DNA of 64,000 nucleotides from the NCBI GenBank assembly GCA_030537155.1, contig JAUNOH010000005.1, forward strand, positions 22,282 to 86,281. Reading direction: 5' to 3'. Numbering within the stretch: position 1 is the first letter of the stretch; every line of letters begins with the position of its first letter. Both the position numbers and the translations under genes were made by a program. Shown here one piece after another: positions 3,206 through 22,468 of this stretch. The notes under the pieces are model-generated. The model was not told the DNA's origin. It saw only the letters and a program-made list of their open reading frames with translations, and made no database searches. The DNA is from Bacillota bacterium. GTDB lineage: Bacteria; Bacillota_I; Bacilli_A; RFN20; CAG-826.

Positions 3206-3294
3206 TGTGTCTAAACACAAAAGATTCGAATGTTTTATTGATTATTCATGGCCTTCTATCGATAATATAGTCGAGAAATATGTGTCTAGACACA
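3206..3294. promoter_or_regulatory. pair of 14-bp palindromic operator-like sites upstream of the AAA ATPase gene
   Basis: TGTGTCTAAACACA at 3206-3219 and the perfect palindrome TGTGTCTAGACACA at 3281-3294, both preceded by GAAA(A)A. Their centres are 75 bp apart. Confidence 0.5.
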
Positions 3295-3308
3295 ATTTGG
3301 ATGGAAGA

Positions 3309-4631
3309 ATGAATCGAACAATCGAAAGACCCAAATATCTGAAAAAGCTCGTCTCCCTCATGGACAATGGCCGAGTCAAAATCGTAACAGGGGCGAGACG
3401 TTCGGGAAAAAGCTACCTCCTTAAGGAACTTTTCAAAAAAGAATTGCTCGCCATGGGGGTCCCGGCCGACCATTTCATCTACCTATCCTTTGAGGGAAAC
3501 GATAACAACGACCTCAAAAACCCGCTGGAGCTTGAAGCCCACATAAGGGGGCTGGTGAAAAACGATGGTAAGTACTATCTGATAATCGACGAGGCCCAAA
3601 ACATCTTTTCCATCACCAATCCATTATTTACCGGAGGAAAAATACTCCTTGCCAAAAAAGGAGATGAAAACGCCATAACCTACGTAGGCGTCGTCCTTTC
3701 GCTGGCGAAGATAGAAAACCTCGACGTCTACATAAGCGGGAGCAATTCCCGCTTCCTATCCCGGGACATCGTGACCGATTTCCGCGATCGGGGCGACGAA
3801 ATCAACGTTAAACCTCTCTCTTTTTCGGAATTCGTTTCATTTAAAAACGAAAATCCCGAAACCCTATATGAAGAATACTCGCTTTATGGGGGGATGCCAT
3901 TGACGCTCAGCTATGCGGAAAACAGGGAGAAAGAAAATTATCTGAATAACCTTTATCTGCTGACTTACGCCAAAGATCTCGTCGAGCGAAACAAAATCAA
4001 AGACGATGAGACGATCAACGTCCTGGCCAAGATTCTATCTAGTTCGCTCGGTTCTCTCGTCAACGGGGAAAAAATCTCCAACACCTTCGTTTCGAACAAA
4101 TTAAAAATTTCCGGCGAAACCGTAAATAAATACCTTGGCTTCCTAACCGAGGCCTATCTCATCGCGAAGGTTGATCGCTATGACATCAGAGGCCGAAAAA
4201 ATATCGGGGCCCTCTACAAATACTATTTCACCGACCTCGGAATCAGGAATTCGCTTCTCCACTTCCTTTCCCGCGATTTCGGCCACATCATGGAGAACAT
4301 CATATATAACGAGCTCGTCTACCGCGGTTATTCTGTTGAAATCGGGGTTATCAATGCCTTCAAAAAGGAAAACGGGACGACTAAGAGGGAAAACTATGAG
4401 ACGGATTTCCTCGTTAGGAAGGGGAGCCTCACATATTACATACAATCATGCTATTCGCTGAACGATGAGCAAACTTATGAAAGGGAAACCAGGCCATTCC
4501 GCCTCATTGATGATTCCTTCAAAAAAATCATCGTGACCCGGCTTGGTGGGCCCATAAGGCACGACGAGCACGGAATCACCCAAATGGGGATAGTCGATTT
4601 CCTATTGCGGGAAGATTCGCTGGATCTTTAA
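3309..4631 (+). CDS. AAA+ ATPase of the DUF4143-containing family
   Basis: ORF 3207..4631 opens with GTG. The ATG at 3309 gives the family-typical N-terminus MNRTIERPKYLKKLVSLMDNGRVKIVTGARRSGKSYLL (Walker A) and LIIDEAQ (Walker B). Confidence 0.75.
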   Translation: MNRTIERPKYLKKLVSLMDNGRVKIVTGARRSGKSYLLKELFKKELLAMGVPADHFIYLSFEGNDNNDLKNPLELEAHIRGLVKNDGKYYLIIDEAQNIFSITNPLFTGGKILLAKKGDENAITYVGVVLSLAKIENLDVYISGSNSRFLSRDIVTDFRDRGDEINVKPLSFSEFVSFKNENPETLYEEYSLYGGMPLTLSYAENREKENYLNNLYLLTYAKDLVERNKIKDDETINVLAKILSSSLGSLVNGEKISNTFVSNKLKISGETVNKYLGFLTEAYLIAKVDRYDIRGRKNIGALYKYYFTDLGIRNSLLHFLSRDFGHIMENIIYNELVYRGYSVEIGVINAFKKENGTTKRENYETDFLVRKGSLTYYIQSCYSLNDEQTYERETRPFRLIDDSFKKIIVTRLGGPIRHDEHGITQMGIVDFLLREDSLDL

Positions 4632-13784: not shown

Positions 13785-16700
13785 TTATTCAATTCCGTGA
13801 TGTTTATATCCTAAGAAATAGGAAAGCATCTCTTCTTCGGTAATCAACCCTTTGCCCACTGCAACTTTTAAATATTTAACGTTGTACCGCGTGAATTGCT
13901 CGTATGAAACATATGCGGAGAAATCGTCGTATGTATATAGTCCATATGCCGCAATGTCCTGTTCCATTAGCTCCTCGTCATATTTGAGGTCTTCGCCGAC
14001 TTCGAAAATATTCAAATTGAAGACTTCCGGAATAACAGTAAGAATACCGTTTGCAACGAAATTCCAATTGTTTTCGGTTATGATGTCATACACTTCGACT
14101 GCTCGAGTCTCTTCTTCGATTCTTGTAACTGTCTTAGACGAAACCGCCCCGTCCTCGTAGGCAAGGACCGATTTTCCAATATGTTCTTCATCGCTCGAAT
14201 CGATTGTGAAATACTCCAAAGTTTCCAAATCGAAATATGATTGGCCGCCCGATGTTTCTAAATACGTCCCGTCGTCGAAGAACACAGTGACAACATGACG
14301 TTCAACCTCTTCCCTCCTTTCGATATAGATAACAGAAGCTTCTTCGTAGCATCCGTTAAAGAAACTGTAGGACATCACTGTGTCTTCTAAAGAAATGTCT
14401 TCCACTGCTTTCGGGGAGCCGTCCGCCATCGAGATCATGGAACCAGCCAAAATGCATGATTGAGAATAGTACCAATAAGCAGTGAGGTCATAATTTGCCC
14501 CTGCGGTAAATGGATCAGAATAGCCGTTAAGTCCCATATCGGCCGGATTGCATGTCACCGTATTGGTGAAGCTGTAGGAAGAGTCGTTTTCCACAGAAAG
14601 GCCGTCCAAATTAGTCTCGGTTTTAACGTCTTGATTGGCGGCGTAATTCATCAAAGAGGACGTCCCGGTCAATACATATTGCAGTTTGAAATAAGCTCCG
14701 AAAGCAACATAAACAACCGAGGTGGATGGTTTGCTAGTCGACCCCATGCCAGTGCTCTGACCAACCGAATAATAGCTACTAGAGTCATTCTTATTCCAGG
14801 ACTCGTAGACAACCCACGAGAAGTGGCCGGTACCTGAATTCCATCCTTGGCCATCGCCGCTCCACTTGGTCTCGCCCGTCTTAATGTCGTAGTAGAAAGA
14901 TAATGACACGGCTTCGGCAGGGGTAATGGTCAAAGTATAGTCGTCATCCATGAGGAAAAGTGATCCGTTAACCAAACTGGTCACATCGGTACCCGACGAA
15001 TCCTTAAGAGAATATGTTCGCGTCCTCGTAACATTAATCTTTATGTACATTCCGATATCGATATTGAACGAAGACGCACTGGTGCCCAGACTGGTGGTTT
15101 CGCCGCTTTCGCTAGAGCTTTGGAAAATTTCGTAGCCATAAACGCTGTGTGCGAACGAAACGTCCTCGACAACCACCGTCAAGGTATGCGTGGTTGCAAA
15201 GGCCCCGGCCCAACAATATTGACTATCGTAAAAAATAGATGTGTAAGTCGCAGGCGCAGTGAAATTAGAATTCACGATCTCATTTGTGGGGGTGTTATAC
15301 ATAATCCCTGTAGTTATTACGCTGCAGCTGCTGCCCGCATATCCCTCATCAGATGTCACGGTGAACTGCGTAGATGCGGGCGCCAACGAAAAATCCAAAA
15401 CCGCCCCTCCTTCGACCAGGGTCGTATGCTGAATATTGGCTCCAAGCGCAGCGTTCCCGCTACCATCTGTATTCAAAGCCAAGGTGCCATTCATTATGAA
15501 TTGGGCGTCTTCACCACCGTCATACGAATATAGAACCGACGCATCGTCGCTGCTCAACACCGCTCCGGCCGCATCATGAAAAATCAATTCGTTATTGACG
15601 TTAAAAGTCCCGCCCTGCAGCACCTCCATATATGATCCTAAAAGGAACTTCATACGGTAAGGCATAGTGAAAACTGCCCCACTTTGAATATACATATTCA
15701 TTTTGCACGAAACTGGTAGAAAACAATTTCTAGTATCAAGGGTGGCGCTTATGCCAGACATGCTTACCGAATAATAGAGGTAGCCTAGCGTCGCCTCCCC
15801 GGCAAAAACTATATTCGTTTTTGCACTGTAATCCCTCAAGGTATATCTAACATCCGTTGGATAATACTCCATGGTTATCGAACCCGACGACATATAGAAC
15901 ATGGATTCTTCGGAAGTATTGTTAGTTATCATCGTTACAGTTTTGCTCATGGCGGTGCCACTCGGTCCAACCATGAGAATATCCGCATTAAGCTTGGCTC
16001 CACAATTAATAGTTGTATAAGTCTGGGATGCCGGAAGATCGAACGTCCAAAATGGAACCTGATTCGCTGTAAGCAAGCTCCCTAAACGTCCCTGCGAGCC
16101 AGCATCGTATGTTGCTATGAATGTGTTCATCACGGATCCGGAATTAAGCAAAAGGTACCTATCTTGATCGAATGAGTTATTAATGATTCCACTATTCGAC
16201 TCTTGAAATGGGTTTGCGTAATCGTCATAGCTTTCTTTGATATAGCCGAAGCAATCTAGGGTCCCGTTAACGGTAATCGAACTTCCGAATCCCAAATTAA
16301 TTTCGCTATAGTAGCCATTGTTTCCACTAACGCTCGCAACCCCACCTATTTGCAAAGTCCCGTTGACAACAATATCGGCTCCTTCCCTCATATTCAGGAG
16401 GATCCGGCGATACAAATTAACGTTGCTGGAGCTTTGATCCCCTGCCTTGCCGCCATAAGCGTCCCTGTTGTCCGCGCTGTCTAACCGATACATAGGGCTG
16501 GTAGTATCGCTTGATTTAGCTTTGCCTTGAAAAGGAAGGCACAATGTAACACCGCTCGGAATGGTTAATGTTGTTTCACAGTCGATGGATTGCCCGGTGT
16601 AAACATAAACGGTGCTGTTAGCGGAAGCTGAATTAAGGGCCGCGGAAATTGAAGTGTACTGAGTTCCTGTAGAGCTGTTGTAACAAAGGGCGGTCGTAGT

Positions 16701-16838
16701 CGAAATTGTGTTACTGACACTGGCGCTATTAACCGTGTATTCGGCGTCCCAAACCCAAGAAGCTTCACCAATGGTTACGCAAAGAATGGAGAGAAAAACC
16801 CCTAGAAACATAAAGATTTTTCCAAGAGCCTTTTTCAT
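13785..16838 (-). CDS. 1017-aa secreted/anchored beta-helix-like protein with a C-terminal Hint (intein-like) domain and an 80-aa tail
   Basis: N-terminal signal-anchor MKKALGKIFMFLGVFLSILCVTIG. The body is S/T/N/G-rich with repeated xxNGTLxx strands. The Hint-like blocks are CILAGSMISMADGSPKAVEDISLEDTVMS and VYDIITENNWNFVANGIL. Codon usage is AT-richer than in the flanking genes. Confidence 0.75.
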   Translation of the reverse strand: MKKALGKIFMFLGVFLSILCVTIGEASWVWDAEYTVNSASVSNTISTTTALCYNSSTGTQYTSISAALNSASANSTVYVYTGQSIDCETTLTIPSGVTLCLPFQGKAKSSDTTSPMYRLDSADNRDAYGGKAGDQSSSNVNLYRRILLNMREGADIVVNGTLQIGGVASVSGNNGYYSEINLGFGSSITVNGTLDCFGYIKESYDDYANPFQESNSGIINNSFDQDRYLLLNSGSVMNTFIATYDAGSQGRLGSLLTANQVPFWTFDLPASQTYTTINCGAKLNADILMVGPSGTAMSKTVTMITNNTSEESMFYMSSGSITMEYYPTDVRYTLRDYSAKTNIVFAGEATLGYLYYSVSMSGISATLDTRNCFLPVSCKMNMYIQSGAVFTMPYRMKFLLGSYMEVLQGGTFNVNNELIFHDAAGAVLSSDDASVLYSYDGGEDAQFIMNGTLALNTDGSGNAALGANIQHTTLVEGGAVLDFSLAPASTQFTVTSDEGYAGSSCSVITTGIMYNTPTNEIVNSNFTAPATYTSIFYDSQYCWAGAFATTHTLTVVVEDVSFAHSVYGYEIFQSSSESGETTSLGTSASSFNIDIGMYIKINVTRTRTYSLKDSSGTDVTSLVNGSLFLMDDDYTLTITPAEAVSLSFYYDIKTGETKWSGDGQGWNSGTGHFSWVVYESWNKNDSSSYYSVGQSTGMGSTSKPSTSVVYVAFGAYFKLQYVLTGTSSLMNYAANQDVKTETNLDGLSVENDSSYSFTNTVTCNPADMGLNGYSDPFTAGANYDLTAYWYYSQSCILAGSMISMADGSPKAVEDISLEDTVMSYSFFNGCYEEASVIYIERREEVERHVVTVFFDDGTYLETSGGQSYFDLETLEYFTIDSSDEEHIGKSVLAYEDGAVSSKTVTRIEEETRAVEVYDIITENNWNFVANGILTVIPEVFNLNIFEVGEDLKYDEELMEQDIAAYGLYTYDDFSAYVSYEQFTRYNVKYLKVAVGKGLITEEEMLSYFLGYKHHGIE
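14028..14456 (-). other. Hint/bacterial-intein-like domain within the 1017-aa ORF (residues ~795-937)
   Basis: Cys795 (TGC at 14456..14454) opens an A-block-like motif. An F/G-block-like NFVANGIL is present, but there is no terminal His-Asn and no canonical TxxH. Confidence 0.6.
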
Positions 16839-16839
16839 T

Positions 16840-17103
16840 TCAAGCCAGCTCCTTGAAAATCGACAAATTAAAAGTGAGCGGGCTGACAGTAATCAAAGAG
16901 TAGAAATTTCCAGTAAACCCAAAGGAGAGATAGAAATAGGTAGTATCCGAAATGGTGAGCACATCACTCGAACACAACATTGACACACCATAGGTTAGTG
17001 AGCTCTCGTCGCTATTAGACAGTTCAATTGATTGCTCAGAATAGTAGCCGGTATCGGTGGAGGAAGTTAAAGATATTCCGCCGAAATACGAGCTTGAACT
17101 CAA
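16840..17103 (-). CDS. hypothetical S/T-rich small protein (TTG start overlapping the upstream stop; it may belong with the upstream ORF)
   Basis: 87-codon ORF with the only start a TTG in TATTGAGT. Its stop is 1 nt before the ATG of the 1017-aa ORF. No recognisable motif. Confidence 0.4.
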   Translation of the reverse strand: MSSSSYFGGISLTSSTDTGYYSEQSIELSNSDESSLTYGVSMLCSSDVLTISDTTYFYLSFGFTGNFYSLITVSPLTFNLSIFKELA

Positions 17104-17534
17104 TATTCCCGAGTTGTTACACGAAAATCGATTGTGAAAGAAAAAACACTACCGTCAGTCGAGCTAGTCAATAAATTGTTATCGCTCGCCTCCGCTGCGT
17201 TAAAACCAATCTCATAAACGAGGTCTGCGCTATCGACAACCTCTCCGGCAACGTCGAGACCTTGATCACAAACTGAGAAGTCTGCATTAACACTGGCGGA
17301 AACAAAGCAATCCGCCACAACTGTACCGGTGACTAGTTTGCCCACGGTAGCGTCTATTTCGACAAATGCCGACGTGTTACCCACATTCCACGACGAGAAA
17401 CCAACCCCAATGCAGGAAACAATTGCCAAGACCAAAATGAAAGCTGGATGTGAAAGCCTATGCCTCTTTCCTTTGCCGAGCTTTATTTCGGACGAAGTGT
17501 TTGATATATCTTTATTCCGCTTTCTCAGTTTCAT
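17100..17534 (-). CDS. hypothetical membrane-anchored/secreted small protein
   Basis: Basic N-terminus and a TM segment AFILVLAIVSCIGVGFSSW. The motif C-x3-G-x-S-S-W is shared with the 1017-aa ORF (CVTIGEASW). Confidence 0.55.
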   Translation of the reverse strand: MKLRKRNKDISNTSSEIKLGKGKRHRLSHPAFILVLAIVSCIGVGFSSWNVGNTSAFVEIDATVGKLVTGTVVADCFVSASVNADFSVCDQGLDVAGEVVDSADLVYEIGFNAAEASDNNLLTSSTDGSVFSFTIDFRVTTREY

Positions 17535-17998
17535 AGATATTCAGGGTGATTATCGCACTCATTTTCAGCATTTGAAATTGTAAAAAATCAAGCACGCTTA
17601 AGCGTGTGTCGCAAAAATCCTCAATATTTGCCGTTATTCAACCTTCGTCGCGTATCATAAGTATTCATTCGCGCATTTGTGTCGCATATTTCTTGTTCAT
17701 TATGAAGTTTTTAAAGTTACGTGTTCCTTGGGTCGCTGAAAACACCCCACCCCTACCGTTTACGAATTACGCAATCTTTCGGATTTCTCCTCAAAAGCTT
17801 TACGCCAATCGAATAAATTCATGATTTGAAGAATTTGGCTATGAATGGAGCCGAATTTTTGTACACGAGTCGTTCAAGAATTGAAAATAATCATGATTAA
17901 CACTTGGTTTTATTGCTTTTATGTCGCTCATAAAAGTAGAATTCCCGTGTCATTTCATCTGAATTGGGCGAGCCCATTCATTTAGCTTGGGGGGACAA

Positions 17999-19015
17999 AT
18001 GGTTAAAAGGAATAATCTCCTGGATATATTCAAACTGATTTTGGCCGTCGGGGTCATCTTCGTCCATTTTCCCTTCGAGGGGCCTATCGGTAACTTCTTC
18101 GCCTCCATCGGCACCACCGGGGTAATCGTCTTTTTCCTCATAAGCGGATATTCCTGCTATAAAGGCGAAAACACCGACAATTCGCCGACGATTCTAAGGA
18201 GAACGCGCCGGATTTTAAACCTGACTTTAGTGTCTGTGCTCATCTATCTGATATTCACGATCATCGAAAAGGCAACCTTAGGCACCATCGCCGAATGGGC
18301 AAGCACCTACTTCACCAATCCCCTCTTCTATTTGAGGCTCATCGTCTTGGGTGACTTTGAGTTCATCCATGGGGACCACCTCTGGTTCTTGCTGGCTTTG
18401 CTATATGGCTACCTGATCATGTATCTGGTCGAAAAGAAGAGGCTTAGAAAACCCTTGGCCATCGCCCTGCCCTTCCTGATATTGCTCCGGATTGGGATGG
18501 AGACCTACACCAATTCCTTCGGGGCTGACTGGCATTTATCCGGGAACGTTTTGGTCGGGGCCCTCCCGATGCTGGCTTTGGGCTACTTCATCCACGCGAA
18601 GGAAGAAAGCTTGCTTAAAATCGAAGGCCGTTACTGGATATCCGCCCTGATCCTCTCCTACATCCTCATGTACTACGCGGTCAATAACAAAGCCTTTGGC
18701 CTCGACATCTCCCAGATCTTCAAGGTGTCCACCGCCGCTTTGTCTTTCCTTTGTTGCCTCTCCTACCCCACCCTCATCAAAGACAACCTCATAGCCGCCT
18801 TTGGCCGCTGGGGCTCTTTATATATCTATGTCTTCCATTACCTGATCGGGGTGCTTTTAAAAGACATCTTCATGGCCAATGGGATCACGGGAGATTTCTA
18901 CTCCACCCACTTCCCCTGGATCGTCGTGGGGGTGAGCTTATTATTCGCCGCCTTATTGGCCTTAGCCGAGACGAGGCTATTGCCCAAGTTGAAACATAAA
19001 GCGAACAAGGCATAA
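17999..19015 (+). CDS. acyltransferase family 3 membrane protein
   Basis: ~10-TM protein starting MVKRNNLLDIFKLILAVGVIFVHF, typical of the Acyl_transf_3 N-terminus. The ATG is at 17999. Confidence 0.75.
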   Translation: MVKRNNLLDIFKLILAVGVIFVHFPFEGPIGNFFASIGTTGVIVFFLISGYSCYKGENTDNSPTILRRTRRILNLTLVSVLIYLIFTIIEKATLGTIAEWASTYFTNPLFYLRLIVLGDFEFIHGDHLWFLLALLYGYLIMYLVEKKRLRKPLAIALPFLILLRIGMETYTNSFGADWHLSGNVLVGALPMLALGYFIHAKEESLLKIEGRYWISALILSYILMYYAVNNKAFGLDISQIFKVSTAALSFLCCLSYPTLIKDNLIAAFGRWGSLYIYVFHYLIGVLLKDIFMANGITGDFYSTHFPWIVVGVSLLFAALLALAETRLLPKLKHKANKA

Positions 19016-20024: not shown

Positions 20025-20297
20025 CTATCTATCGTAGATTTCCCTTCGATGGCCGATGGCGATGACGAGGATTATGAGCTTATCGTCTTTGATCTCACAC
20101 ACCATGCGGTAGTCTCCGATTCGGTAACGCCAATAGTCTTTGAGGTTGCCCTTGAGGGCTTTCCCACTAAGTCTAGGGTTCTCGACATTAGTCAAATGCT
20201 TATTGATCCACGACTGGATCATCCTTTTGGTGTAGCCGTCGAACTTAGTGAATTCCTTCGCAGCTTCCTTCGAAAACTCGATCTTATAAAAGGCCAT
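20025..20297 (-). CDS. relE: RelE/ParE-family type II toxin
   Basis: MAFYKIEFSKEAAKEF...YWRYRIGDYRMVCEIKDDKLIILVIAIGHRREIY. The ATG at 20297 overlaps the antitoxin stop by 14 nt. Confidence 0.85.
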   Translation of the reverse strand: MAFYKIEFSKEAAKEFTKFDGYTKRMIQSWINKHLTNVENPRLSGKALKGNLKDYWRYRIGDYRMVCEIKDDKLIILVIAIGHRREIYDR

Positions 20298-20508
20298 TGT
20301 TCTTCTGGACTTCTTCCCAGGAAATGGTCTTTTCCTTACCTTCATCGATAGCGACCATCCTCTCGTCGGCGATGGCTATATCGAATTCGTCTTCAATTGC
20401 CTCGAAATAGACTTTCTTGATGGCTTCGCTGAGGGTCATGCCCTTTAATTGCGCATAGCTTTTTGCAAGTTGCTCTTGCTCTTTGGTCATTCTGATTGAG
20501 ATGCTCAT
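20284..20508 (-). CDS. relB: RelB/DinJ-like ribbon-helix-helix antitoxin
   Basis: MSISIRMTKEQEQLAKSYAQLKGMTLSEAIKK; AGGAGG RBS; located upstream of the RelE gene. Confidence 0.8.
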   Translation of the reverse strand: MSISIRMTKEQEQLAKSYAQLKGMTLSEAIKKVYFEAIEDEFDIAIADERMVAIDEGKEKTISWEEVQKNNGLL

Positions 20509-21133: not shown

Positions 21134-22468
21134 TCATTTGATCACCTTCCACCTACCCATCTTTTTGGACCCCACCCTTATGATGAGGCCTTTTTTCTGC
21201 AAACTGGCAAGCGCTCTTTCGACGGTTCTCAGACTTTTCCCGGTTTCCTGGGATAGCGAAATTGAGGTATGGCTCGGATTCGACAAAAGCAAACCGATAA
21301 TCTCGTTTTCTGTATCGCTGAGATTTAAGCCGCCGCTTAAACCATCGTTTAGACCAACGCTTAGACCGAAATTCTGCTTTTCCAGAACAGCCTTATTAAA
21401 CGGGATAATGACATTTATATAGGAATCTGTGATCTCGAAAGCGCCTTCCCCGTATTCCGAAACTATCACCGGGACGCCGTGACCTGTATGCTCAACTATC
21501 CCCATATCGAGGAAGATCCTCATTAGCTTTTCGTTTCTCGGCCTGCTTATACCTTTGAAAAATTGCTCTTTGGTTTGATTATGCGGGAGACCCCCATGCG
21601 AGAGAATTTCTATCCTATCCGAGAAAAAAGAAACCAGCGGTTCGGTTATGCTCCAATCATTATGCACCAGCGCATTAACAACAGCCTCATTGACGGCATC
21701 AAAATTGAAAAGATATATGTCTTTCCTAGGCCTTACGGTTGTGTCCGTGACACATATATTCTCAGCAGAAATCCTGTTCATCAGCTGTTCATAGGCAAAC
21801 AGCAGACATTGATTCCCGTAGTCGCTTCTCTGAGAAATCGAAACCTTGTCGGTTCCTTTGAATTTCACAAAGATCAAAGGAATCGTATTTCTATCAGACA
21901 TCAACTCGGCGAGTTTGTTGTATTCACCATCCGCGTTCCTTAAAAACAGATTCGTCTCAAAGGAATTGTCATTCAAATGAAAGCCTTTCTCAGAATAATA
22001 GATCTTCAATGTTTTAAAAGATATCAAACCGTAACTAGTGGGAGAACTCACCAAAATGTCGTTATTGAAGAAACGCTTTTCATAGCGAACCCTGATTTGC
22101 TCTTGGGTCATTTCGCGGCAGGTCGTACCAACTCTTATGGAGCAGCCTGTCGACGAAAAACCATATTTCTTTTGACAATAAATCGGACTGCTTCCTTTTT
22201 TAATAGCCACATTGACTATCGTTTTCCCTTCGTTATAGATAAGTTCCGTTTTTACGATATCCTGGGGATTCGGTTCGATTTGATTGGTTATCACATCGGC
22301 AAGATCTCTGCACACTTGATCAACATCATCGACCCCGACGATTTCCCCATCGTCTTTTACACCGATATAGATGTTTCCTCCTTCGGCGTTTAGAAATGAG
22401 ACTATCTCTTTGCAAATGGTGTTTGAATATTTCTGCTTGAGTTCCACTAGATTAGATTCGATTAACAT
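21134..22468 (-). CDS. AlbA_2 (Schlafen-type) domain ATP-binding protein with a C-terminal wHTH
   Basis: ESNLVELKQKYSNTICKEIVSFLNAEGGNIYIGVKDDGEIVGV (AlbA_2 signature), HTGHGVPVIV (HATPase_c_4-like), and the terminal RTVERALASLQKKGLIIRVG. Confidence 0.75.
   Translation of the reverse strand: MLIESNLVELKQKYSNTICKEIVSFLNAEGGNIYIGVKDDGEIVGVDDVDQVCRDLADVITNQIEPNPQDIVKTELIYNEGKTIVNVAIKKGSSPIYCQKKYGFSSTGCSIRVGTTCREMTQEQIRVRYEKRFFNNDILVSSPTSYGLISFKTLKIYYSEKGFHLNDNSFETNLFLRNADGEYNKLAELMSDRNTIPLIFVKFKGTDKVSISQRSDYGNQCLLFAYEQLMNRISAENICVTDTTVRPRKDIYLFNFDAVNEAVVNALVHNDWSITEPLVSFFSDRIEILSHGGLPHNQTKEQFFKGISRPRNEKLMRIFLDMGIVEHTGHGVPVIVSEYGEGAFEITDSYINVIIPFNKAVLEKQNFGLSVGLNDGLSGGLNLSDTENEIIGLLLSNPSHTSISLSQETGKSLRTVERALASLQKKGLIIRVGSKKMGRWKVIK

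Follow-up and report, generated by a model that had tools for sequence, protein, structure and literature searches.

In hedgehog proteins, the Hint domain forms a thioester and the helical sterol recognition region (SRR) of 50-100 aa that follows it performs the nucleophile transfer (PMC7242414). The Hint domain BIL2 passes its N-extein on to the amine of a lysine (PMC8616854). The known bacterial Hint classes are the bacterial intein-like (BIL) types BIL-A and BIL-B and a proteobacterial/myxobacterial class, and where the Hog domain of hedgehog proteins comes from was left to future bacterial Hint families (Bürglin 2008, PMC2362128). Here we describe a module that falls outside all three classes. 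It forms the C-terminus of a 1017-aa protein (the giant), which is encoded together with a small partner on the minus strand, at 13785-17534 of a 64,000-nt stretch (the window) of a gut Bacillota bacterium (GCA_030537155.1, contig JAUNOH010000005.1). The reading that we prefer, with a probability of roughly 0.55, is that the locus is a horizontally acquired two-gene cell-envelope unit, the giant of which carries a Hog-like self-processing Hint-tail module. A Hint-like module with an 80-aa tail had been noticed in an initial annotation made from the letters of the window, and both parts were found (Hint residues 795-~935, ~82-aa tail). The combination is, however, not restricted to this protein but is a widespread C-terminal module on unrelated bodies. 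The parts of the module in the window are:

14034..14456 (-): Hint domain, residues 795-~935 (profile, Foldseek, alignment)
14454-14456 (-): codon of the catalytic Cys795, the first Hint residue
14241-14243 (-): codon of Gln866 at the block-B position, which is His in 87/90 relatives
13788..14033 (-): C-terminal tail, residues 936-1017 (82 aa), acidic and aromatic-rich, with 4-5 helices (AlphaFold2 (AF2) model, alignment); the stop codon follows at 13785-13787

Relatives were collected in a scan with one genome per species. It gave 438 loci, most of which match residues ~790-1005 only, and 90 modules were extracted for alignment. The window protein alone yields sub-threshold Hint signals (Pfam Intein_splicing, E=4e-4; PDB 6y75, E=2e-3). 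With a profile of the Hint module, the PDB search returned BIL2 of Tetrahymena BUBL1 (6tmm/6y75) at E=1.5e-10, and also hedgehog 1at0, PI-SceI and others; the profile of the full-length giant matched nothing in PDB outside the Hint domain. Similarly, Foldseek with the AF2 model gave target TM-scores (TMt) of 0.81 for BIL2 and 0.80 for the hedgehog Hint 1at0, within a range of 0.77-0.83 in which mini-inteins reached up to 0.83. By Foldseek E-value, BIL2 and the hedgehog Hint outrank the inteins, and BIL2 is the best match to the Hint domain in both sequence and structure. The AF2 model of the giant (13-sequence alignment) has a mean predicted local distance difference test score (pLDDT) of 71, with 71-91 in the Hint and tail blocks. 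The Pfam hedgehog Hint family PF01079 was matched by 53/87 members, the most of any Hint family. The Hint domain is of the hedgehog type, with an invariant Cys795 and without a C-terminal His-Asn.

Cys795 is invariant both in the alignment (90/90 modules) and in a second sample (137/137 representatives). Small residues dominate position -1 (Ser in 47/137 and Gly in 28/137), and the third residue before the block-B His is Ile or Val, not the Thr of TxxH. The Hint domain ends with G-x-L-S/T, without His-Asn and without a +1 nucleophile, the residue after the partly conserved Asn943 being hydrophobic. Splicing and C-terminal cleavage are therefore excluded, and only N-terminal chemistry is possible. 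A true intein or BIL-A was rejected for the lack of the C-terminal His-Asn. BIL-A and BIL2 keep this pair and cleave or splice at both ends, whereas the module has a tail instead; what it shares with them is that a non-mobile Hint is embedded in secreted or modifier proteins. Unlike an intein, the module is not inserted into a conserved site of a host protein. It is C-terminal, always with its tail, on unrelated bodies, and ends at most ~15 residues from the C-terminus in 89/90 open reading frames (ORFs) of 255-3574 aa. The exception, L057, has a further ~380-residue acidic extension after the module.

The tail carries the signature D-I-x-x-Y-G-L-Y-T-Y, in which Y965, G966 and Y970 never vary and 89/90 modules keep D961 and L967. 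Over 87 sequences, the mean column identity of the tail is 41%; measured against the window copy, the tails are 29-59% identical and the whole modules 22-37%. By these alignments, the tail is more conserved than the Hint domain. It is acidic (mean net charge -9.5, pI 4.2), 18% aromatic, and its longest hydrophobic run does not exceed 7 residues. No match to the tail was found in Pfam, NCBIfam or PDB sequences, and the PDB profile search gave nothing below E=0.8. A tail-only profile search of 1.84 billion cluster representatives found 2,222 proteins at E≤1e-3, 1,877 of them at E≤1e-10, with the tail nearly always at the extreme C-terminus. Among the 150 best tail matches, 147 representatives were newly retrieved. 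Since 143 of these 147 carry a Hint domain directly upstream of the tail and the remaining 4 are fragments of less than 130 aa, the tail is obligately coupled to Hint. Any sequence after the tail is either acidic and of low complexity or forms a small additional domain; membrane segments and sortase signals were never seen there. The only strong internal match to the tail lies at residues 475-550 of P0092 (3496 aa, JGI/NCBI), with a Hint-like stretch before it and ~2,900 residues after it; a fused gene or an erroneous call may explain it.

The bodies that carry the module include Flg_new/InlB-repeat proteins, a subtilase (S8) and an M64 peptidase. Module-bearing proteins that appear full-length have export signals at their N-termini, which are Sec-type, SW-type (described below), SipW-type (GTTFAWFTDS) or, in one case, prepilin-like. 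Apart from the partners of the SW-type proteins, no neighbouring gene family recurred across 80 Hint-tail loci, so the cassette appears autonomous. These comparisons indicate that Hint-tail is a self-contained, generic C-terminal cassette of about 2,000 families of secreted proteins of gut Bacillota. While the catalytic fold of Hint is known, the obligatory tail domain and the broad C-terminal deployment (~2,200 clusters, gut Bacillota) are new. The obligatory-tail Hint cassette has no counterpart in Pfam, NCBIfam or PDB, and no description of the module was found in the literature searched.

In its distribution, the module resembles LPXTG/sortase signals, SLH domains and dockerins, which are likewise portable modules at or near the C-termini of many unrelated secreted bodies within one phylum. 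It differs from them in its chemistry, which is predicted to be autocatalytic via Hint, and in lacking LPXTG, a membrane span and a positively charged end. The giant of the window ends with ...LGYKHHGIE, with no LPXTG, hydrophobic segment or basic end. An anchoring role of the module is offered here as a hypothesis.

We propose the following course of events. The small, ~231-aa beta-rich protein and the 1017-aa giant would both be exported via N-terminal hydrophobic segments that end in related motifs of the G-F-S-S-W type. After export, Cys795 would attack the peptide bond between Ser794 and Cys795 in an N-to-S acyl shift, forming a thioester. Water, or an acceptor held in place by the tail, would then be the nucleophile that resolves it. 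In this way, the ~770-aa body would be detached from, or transferred off, the 223-aa Hint-tail fragment. Judged from the sequence features and by analogy, Hog-like autoprocessing at Ser794-Cys795 is the most likely mechanism, and plain hydrolysis of the thioester would be its simplest outcome. The small protein and the giant probably act together at the cell surface. If this proposal is correct, it points to autocatalytic processing, and possibly attachment, of surface proteins in mostly uncultured lineages dominant in animal guts.

The likeness to Hog proteins is one of architecture: a secreted N-terminal cargo, a Hint domain that starts with Cys and lacks a C-terminal Asn, and a helical region of 50-100 aa at the extreme C-terminus, where Hint directly precedes a required helical tail (82 aa with 4-5 helices; 143/147). 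The differences are that the module is bacterial (gut Bacillota), that its tail is acidic, soluble and unlike the SRR in sequence, whereas the hedgehog SRR is amphipathic and membrane-binding, and that position -1 is mostly Ser or Gly, in contrast to the invariant Gly of hedgehog. The alignment also points to the lack of a conserved equivalent of Asp46. The module belongs to the Hint superfamily but is neither an intein or BIL-A, nor a polymorphic-toxin Hint, nor a bona fide Hog domain. It is a concrete bacterial candidate for the origin of the hedgehog Hog domain.

The fate of the thioester can be explained in several ways. Hint may act by hydrolysis alone, removing the Hint-tail as a propeptide in the course of maturation or release, with the tail serving as a folding cap, a solubility tag or a regulatory element. 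Non-splicing bacterial Hint/BIL domains hydrolyse by default (PMC7242414; PMC2362128), the tail is soluble, acidic and devoid of an evident ligand-binding signature, and no acceptor or partner gene is conserved nearby. A propeptide is, however, not expected to outdo the catalytic domain in conservation, as the tail does, with Y-G-L-x-x-Y invariant across ~2,000 clusters, and in other families Hint domains cleave without such tails. We therefore regard a purely hydrolytic role as possible but doubtful. Because of the hedgehog and BIL2 precedents, tail-assisted transfer of the giant's body to an acceptor has to be taken as a serious possibility, if an improbable one. In its most far-reaching form, the Hint-tail would be a bacterial protein ligase of the Hog type, in which the tail recruits an envelope nucleophile to resolve the Cys795 thioester. 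The candidates would be an amine or hydroxyl of peptidoglycan or teichoic acid, a glycolipid, or a lysine of the small partner protein; the acidic, soluble character of the tail argues against a lipid acceptor. We consider such a ligase rather unlikely. If it did exist, thousands of surface proteins of gut Firmicutes would be covalently anchored or polymerised without sortase, and the cassette might represent the prokaryotic stock of the eukaryotic Hog domain, which consists of Hint and an adduct recognition region (ARR).

The architecture also calls to mind polymorphic toxins, in which a large secreted beta-rich protein carries Hint and a short C-terminal domain (PMC3482391). A PT-HINT-like Hint, presumed to be a releasing protease near the C-terminus of a large secreted protein, would here free the tail as an effector or toxin against competitors, and 11/87 members do match PT-HINT (PF07591) weakly. 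Yet the domain downstream of Hint is invariant in the module, not polymorphic as in PT-HINT proteins; it is an 80-aa acidic helical bundle without a match to any toxin family, and the bodies include ordinary enzymes (S8 and M64 peptidases). No immunity-like gene recurs downstream. A polymorphic toxin was rejected because the tail is conserved and an immunity gene is missing, and we hold such a function to be highly improbable.

Upstream of the module, the giant consists of two parts:

16761..16838 (-): residues 1-26, a basic N-region and a hydrophobic segment, i.e. a signal peptide or signal anchor (ORF listing, family alignment)
14457..16754 (-): body, residues 29-794, rich in S/T/N/G and all-beta (AF2 model, family alignment)

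An N-terminal hydrophobic segment, initially called a signal-anchor, is indeed present. It is followed immediately by A-S-W at residues 26-28. The body ends at Ser794, the residue that precedes the predicted scissile bond. It had been read as a probable parallel beta-helix, of which the all-beta part holds: DSSP analysis of the AF2 model shows short-strand rungs at ~145-202 and 380-470 interleaved with beta-sandwich segments. The helix itself stays a candidate fold: Pfam Beta_helix did not match the window giant and Foldseek gave no match to the body with a TM-score above 0.2; below that value, the pilus adhesins PitA and SpaC were the only matches. We describe the giant as an adhesin-like surface protein. 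Its full-length family is rare: a search of 5.8 billion clustered proteins gave 13 matches, none of them named.

Three minus-strand ORFs, co-directional and closely packed, had been reported at the locus, and the ORF listing reproduced their coordinates: 13785-16838 (1017 aa), 16840-17103 (87 aa) and 17100-17534 (144 aa). Both reported junctions were also recovered, the TTGA overlap of 4 nt between the 87-aa and 144-aa ORFs at 17100-17103 and the gap of 1 nt between the giant and the 87-aa ORF at 16839 (TGAAATG). A Shine-Dalgarno sequence, AAGGAG, lies 11 nt upstream of the giant's ATG. The two small ORFs are, however, not two proteins but the halves of one 231-aa gene, split by a 1-nt deletion:

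16840..17534 (-): small partner gene, 231 aa after frameshift repair (alignment to the intact ORF of L003)
17124..17127 (-): frameshift site, T4 in the window and T5 in five assemblies (DNA alignment)
17388..17450 (-): hydrophobic segment of the small protein, residues 29-49, ending in G-F-S-S-W (family alignment, codons read)

In L003 (ENA contig k141_166750), where the giant is 99% identical, a single 231-aa ORF lies directly upstream of it. The small-gene DNA of the window differs from that of L003 in the indel and one synonymous substitution and in nothing else, and once the T missing from the T5 run is put back, the 144-aa ORF reads on into the 87-aa ORF and yields the L003 protein. Five independent assemblies of the same species (L003, L088, L089, L090 and L091), which are otherwise ~99-100% identical to the window at the locus, have T5 and an unbroken 231-aa ORF. 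As one gene is frameshifted, mechanical ORF calling gave the 87-aa ORF a TTG 'start' that is an artefact. The deletion may have arisen in assembly, or it may be real and mark a strain-specific pseudogene; whichever origin it has, the unit is a gene pair, small plus giant, and not a triad. For annotation, the lesson is that a homopolymer indel turned one gene into two 'novel small proteins'. The 144-aa fragment is listed at NCBI as hypothetical protein Q4F15_02485 in a 'Bacillota bacterium' metagenome-assembled genome (MAG).

A profile search with the small family retrieved 33 proteins only, 144-248 aa long, all of 190-248 aa except for the truncated 144-aa ORF of the window. They diverge strongly (12-27% identity to the window's protein). 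What they have in common is the N-terminus, a basic and hydrophobic stretch closed by S-[VI]-G-F-[SA]-S-W, in which G45, F46 and W49 never change and S43 and V44 hardly ever do (n=33). The remainder of the protein is predicted to be beta-rich. By its sequence, S-V/I-G followed by F would fit a site of signal peptidase I, with the cut between G and F. None of the 33 proteins carries a Pfam domain or an informative name, and scans of the small ORFs against Pfam, NCBIfam and PHROGs gave no match. The statement of the initial annotation that no described family could be named for the gene set therefore stands for the small protein and the giant's body, which are blank in these three databases. It does not stand for Hint, which NCBI annotates: the giant is identical to MDO5330286.1, named 'Hint domain-containing protein'.

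The giants related to the window protein carry G-x-S-[ST]-W-[ILV]-I in the position of its A-S-W motif. The x-S-[ST]-W-[ILV]-I part stands where the small protein has its own motif, and the corresponding sequence of the window giant is G-E-A-S-W-V-W. The candidate roles of this shared N-terminal motif are a signal-peptidase site (S-V-G before F), pairing at the membrane interface, and a donor strand. At every locus with enough flank (L001, L004, L005, L006/7 and others), a gene of 196-231 aa lies directly upstream of the giant, usually with a 4-nt overlap, and homologues of 190-250 aa were found directly upstream of giants at other loci. Among 58 Hint-tail genes with enough upstream sequence, a gene with GF[SA]SW was located upstream of 11/17 SW-type giants and of 3/41 others (Fisher p=1.4e-5), and these three 'exceptions' are giants with variants of the SW-type motif missed by the regular expression. 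The pairing of small protein and giant is seen again at 14 or more further loci in gut Bacilli and Clostridia. The conservation beyond this genome that the initial annotation had set as a test of its reading was found, though for a pair and not for a triad, as the small gene is frameshifted here. At some loci (L063 and L078), there are multiple small paralogues. A second pair (244 aa and 1007 aa) lies directly downstream of the first at L006:11950-15704, and its giant has no Hint-tail module; SW-type giants therefore occur both with and without the cassette.

Four genes precede the pair in at least nine loci (L001/2, L005, L006/7, L021, L050, L060, L063, L064 and L078). They encode an ABC-2-type ATPase, which is DrrA/GldA-like but below every equivalog cutoff, a 530-aa 12TM_1-like permease with 12 transmembrane segments (12-TM), an N-anchored protein of ~800 aa with a weak Beta_helix match, and a Flg_new lipoprotein of ~365 aa with a lipobox. 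The pair with the GFSSW motif and this ABC-2/12-TM/lipoprotein neighbourhood are an uncharacterised cell-envelope gene set. The cluster is not present in the 64-kb window, where tblastn gave generic ABC ATPase similarity only. The initial annotation had seen no sortase signal, transporter or immunity gene. This is right for the window itself, which has no dedicated transporter, but the transporter part does not extend to the other genomes, in which the ABC-2 and 12TM_1 genes precede the pair.

The shared motif raises the question of whether the small protein is a pilin-like subunit and the giant a tip adhesin, joined by a shared N-terminal donor strand and assembled as in TasA/SipW or chaperone-usher fibres, possibly with the aid of the ABC-2/12-TM genes of the other genomes. 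A motif at the mature N-terminus is indeed common to a small beta-sandwich protein and a large adhesin-like one, several small paralogues are present at L063 and L078, and the top Foldseek matches, all weak, include Gram-positive pilins such as CppA (probability 0.90, E=0.095). As in the SipW/TasA/camelysin group, a conserved motif closes the signal sequence of several proteins of a locus, and other Hint-tail proteins bear genuine SipW-type signals with SipW nearby. Against this stand the hhalign probability of 1.4% with N-domains of the SipW/TasA type, the small-protein model, which is of low confidence and with which Foldseek found nothing below E=0.06, the frameshift of the small gene, and the fact that neither a signal peptidase nor an assembly ATPase was found in the window. 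The GFSSW family has no detectable homology to the SipW/TasA proteins (no Pfam/NCBIfam match), the small protein carries neither the TIGR04088 signal nor a Peptidase_M73 domain, and no SipW (S26 peptidase) gene lies next to SW-type pairs. The TasA/SipW homology of the small protein was dropped as unsupported, and a pilus of this kind is in our view unlikely.

As to the SipW-type signals themselves, they are combined with a conserved TasA-like N-domain on the Hint-tail proteins of L037, L043, L048, L054 and L075. A gene for a SipW-type signal peptidase I is situated near Hint-tail genes in four loci, for example at L057:7131-7640.

Several observations weigh against the preferred reading of a self-processing two-gene envelope unit. 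In four strain variants of the giant (P0001 and P0195-P0197), position -1 is occupied by Pro, where the window has Ser794 (codon 14457-14459, -), and Pro at -1 is unfavourable for the acyl shift in inteins. In block B, the window has Gln866 where 87/90 relatives keep His. The tail is acidic, without a hydrophobic run of more than 7 residues and without SRR similarity, so that the analogy to Hog is architectural only. The small gene is broken here, and the pair may therefore be non-functional in this strain; moreover, the AF2 model of the small protein has a pLDDT of 59.

Taken further, these points could mean that the locus is a decaying remnant in this strain, a frameshifted small gene and a catalytically dead Hint in an island of foreign composition that is being lost. 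The Q866 substitution, Pro at -1 in sister strains and the frameshift fit this picture, as do an excess of nonsynonymous over synonymous differences between strains and the other strain-specific frameshifts and the toxin-antitoxin pair of the region. The giant differs between strains in 8 nonsynonymous and 0-1 synonymous codons, which are clustered at residues 653-665, 728 and 794; such a pattern would fit a surface protein under relaxed or diversifying selection. On the other hand, none of the six assemblies has a break in the 3-kb ORF of the giant and five have an unbroken small gene, every other highly conserved position of Hint and tail is retained, and the single-base indel may be an assembly error. 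The Gln variant also recurs in unrelated members with a compensating Gly-to-Ser change (GGQSYFD), and this speaks for a variant that is tolerated and against decay. The two proteins in question, with unrelated bodies, are encoded at L024:161-4756 (Bacilli MAG) and L022:2045-10813 (Acholeplasmatales MAG). Decay thus seems to us an unlikely explanation, although the window's copy is an atypical and possibly impaired member, with a frameshift in its partner gene, Gln at the block-B position and the ABC cluster missing.

The AT-richness ascribed to the locus was upheld by overall G+C content (GC), by GC at third codon positions (GC3) and by windowed GC. The giant has a GC of 0.45 and the small gene of 0.44, compared with 0.55-0.60 in genes located past 26 kb. 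GC3 is 0.497 in the giant and 0.390 in the small region as against 0.776±0.062 in 30 genes beyond 26 kb, i.e. 4.5 and 6.2 standard deviations lower for the giant and the small gene, respectively. In 1-kb windows, GC is 0.42-0.47 across 13-18 kb and about 0.55 past 26 kb. The relatives of the giant reside in genomes of 27-44% GC and match their local composition, whereas the window giant is a strong AT-rich outlier with respect to its host, as is the relative in L010. The composition therefore fits the horizontal acquisition that had been suggested for the locus. The homologous giant at L010:5603-8755 has a GC of 0.42 within a locus of 0.60. A phage origin was rejected: there was no PHROG match, a tblastn search of 50,697 phage records with the Hint-tail was empty, and the matches in BFVD are Hint domains only.

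One further feature precedes the pair:

17549..17576 (-): promoter-like site TTCAAA-16-TG-GATAAT just upstream of the small gene (weak evidence)

The promoter/terminator scan gave 6 sites, with 8.7 expected from shuffling, and hence no excess over chance.

The surrounding region of 17-26 kb is variable and of lower GC; it contains an Acyl_transf_3 gene, a gene for an HTH membrane protein, a DUF6290/ParE pair and an SLFN/AlbA_2 ATPase gene. Further low-GC patches are present in the window at 3.2-4.6 kb and 21-23 kb. In the former, an AT-richer gene at 3207-4631 (+; GC 0.45, GC3 0.57) has high-GC neighbours. A gene for a DUF6290 antitoxin and one for a ParE-family toxin lie at 20025-20508 (-) as overlapping ORFs of 74 aa and ~90-106 aa, their Pfam assignment being transferred from the 99%-identical L003. 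At 21134-22468 (-), a 444-aa protein with SLFN_AlbA_2, HATPase_c_4 and HTH_24 is encoded by a gene with a GC of 0.42 and a GC3 of 0.49, another compositional outlier of the same variable region. The Acyl_transf_3 gene at 17987-19015 (+), encoding a membrane acyltransferase of 342 aa, is intact in the window, L089 and L090, and is split into 222 and 98 aa in L003 and L088; different strains are thus frameshifted in different genes flanking one divergent intergenic region.

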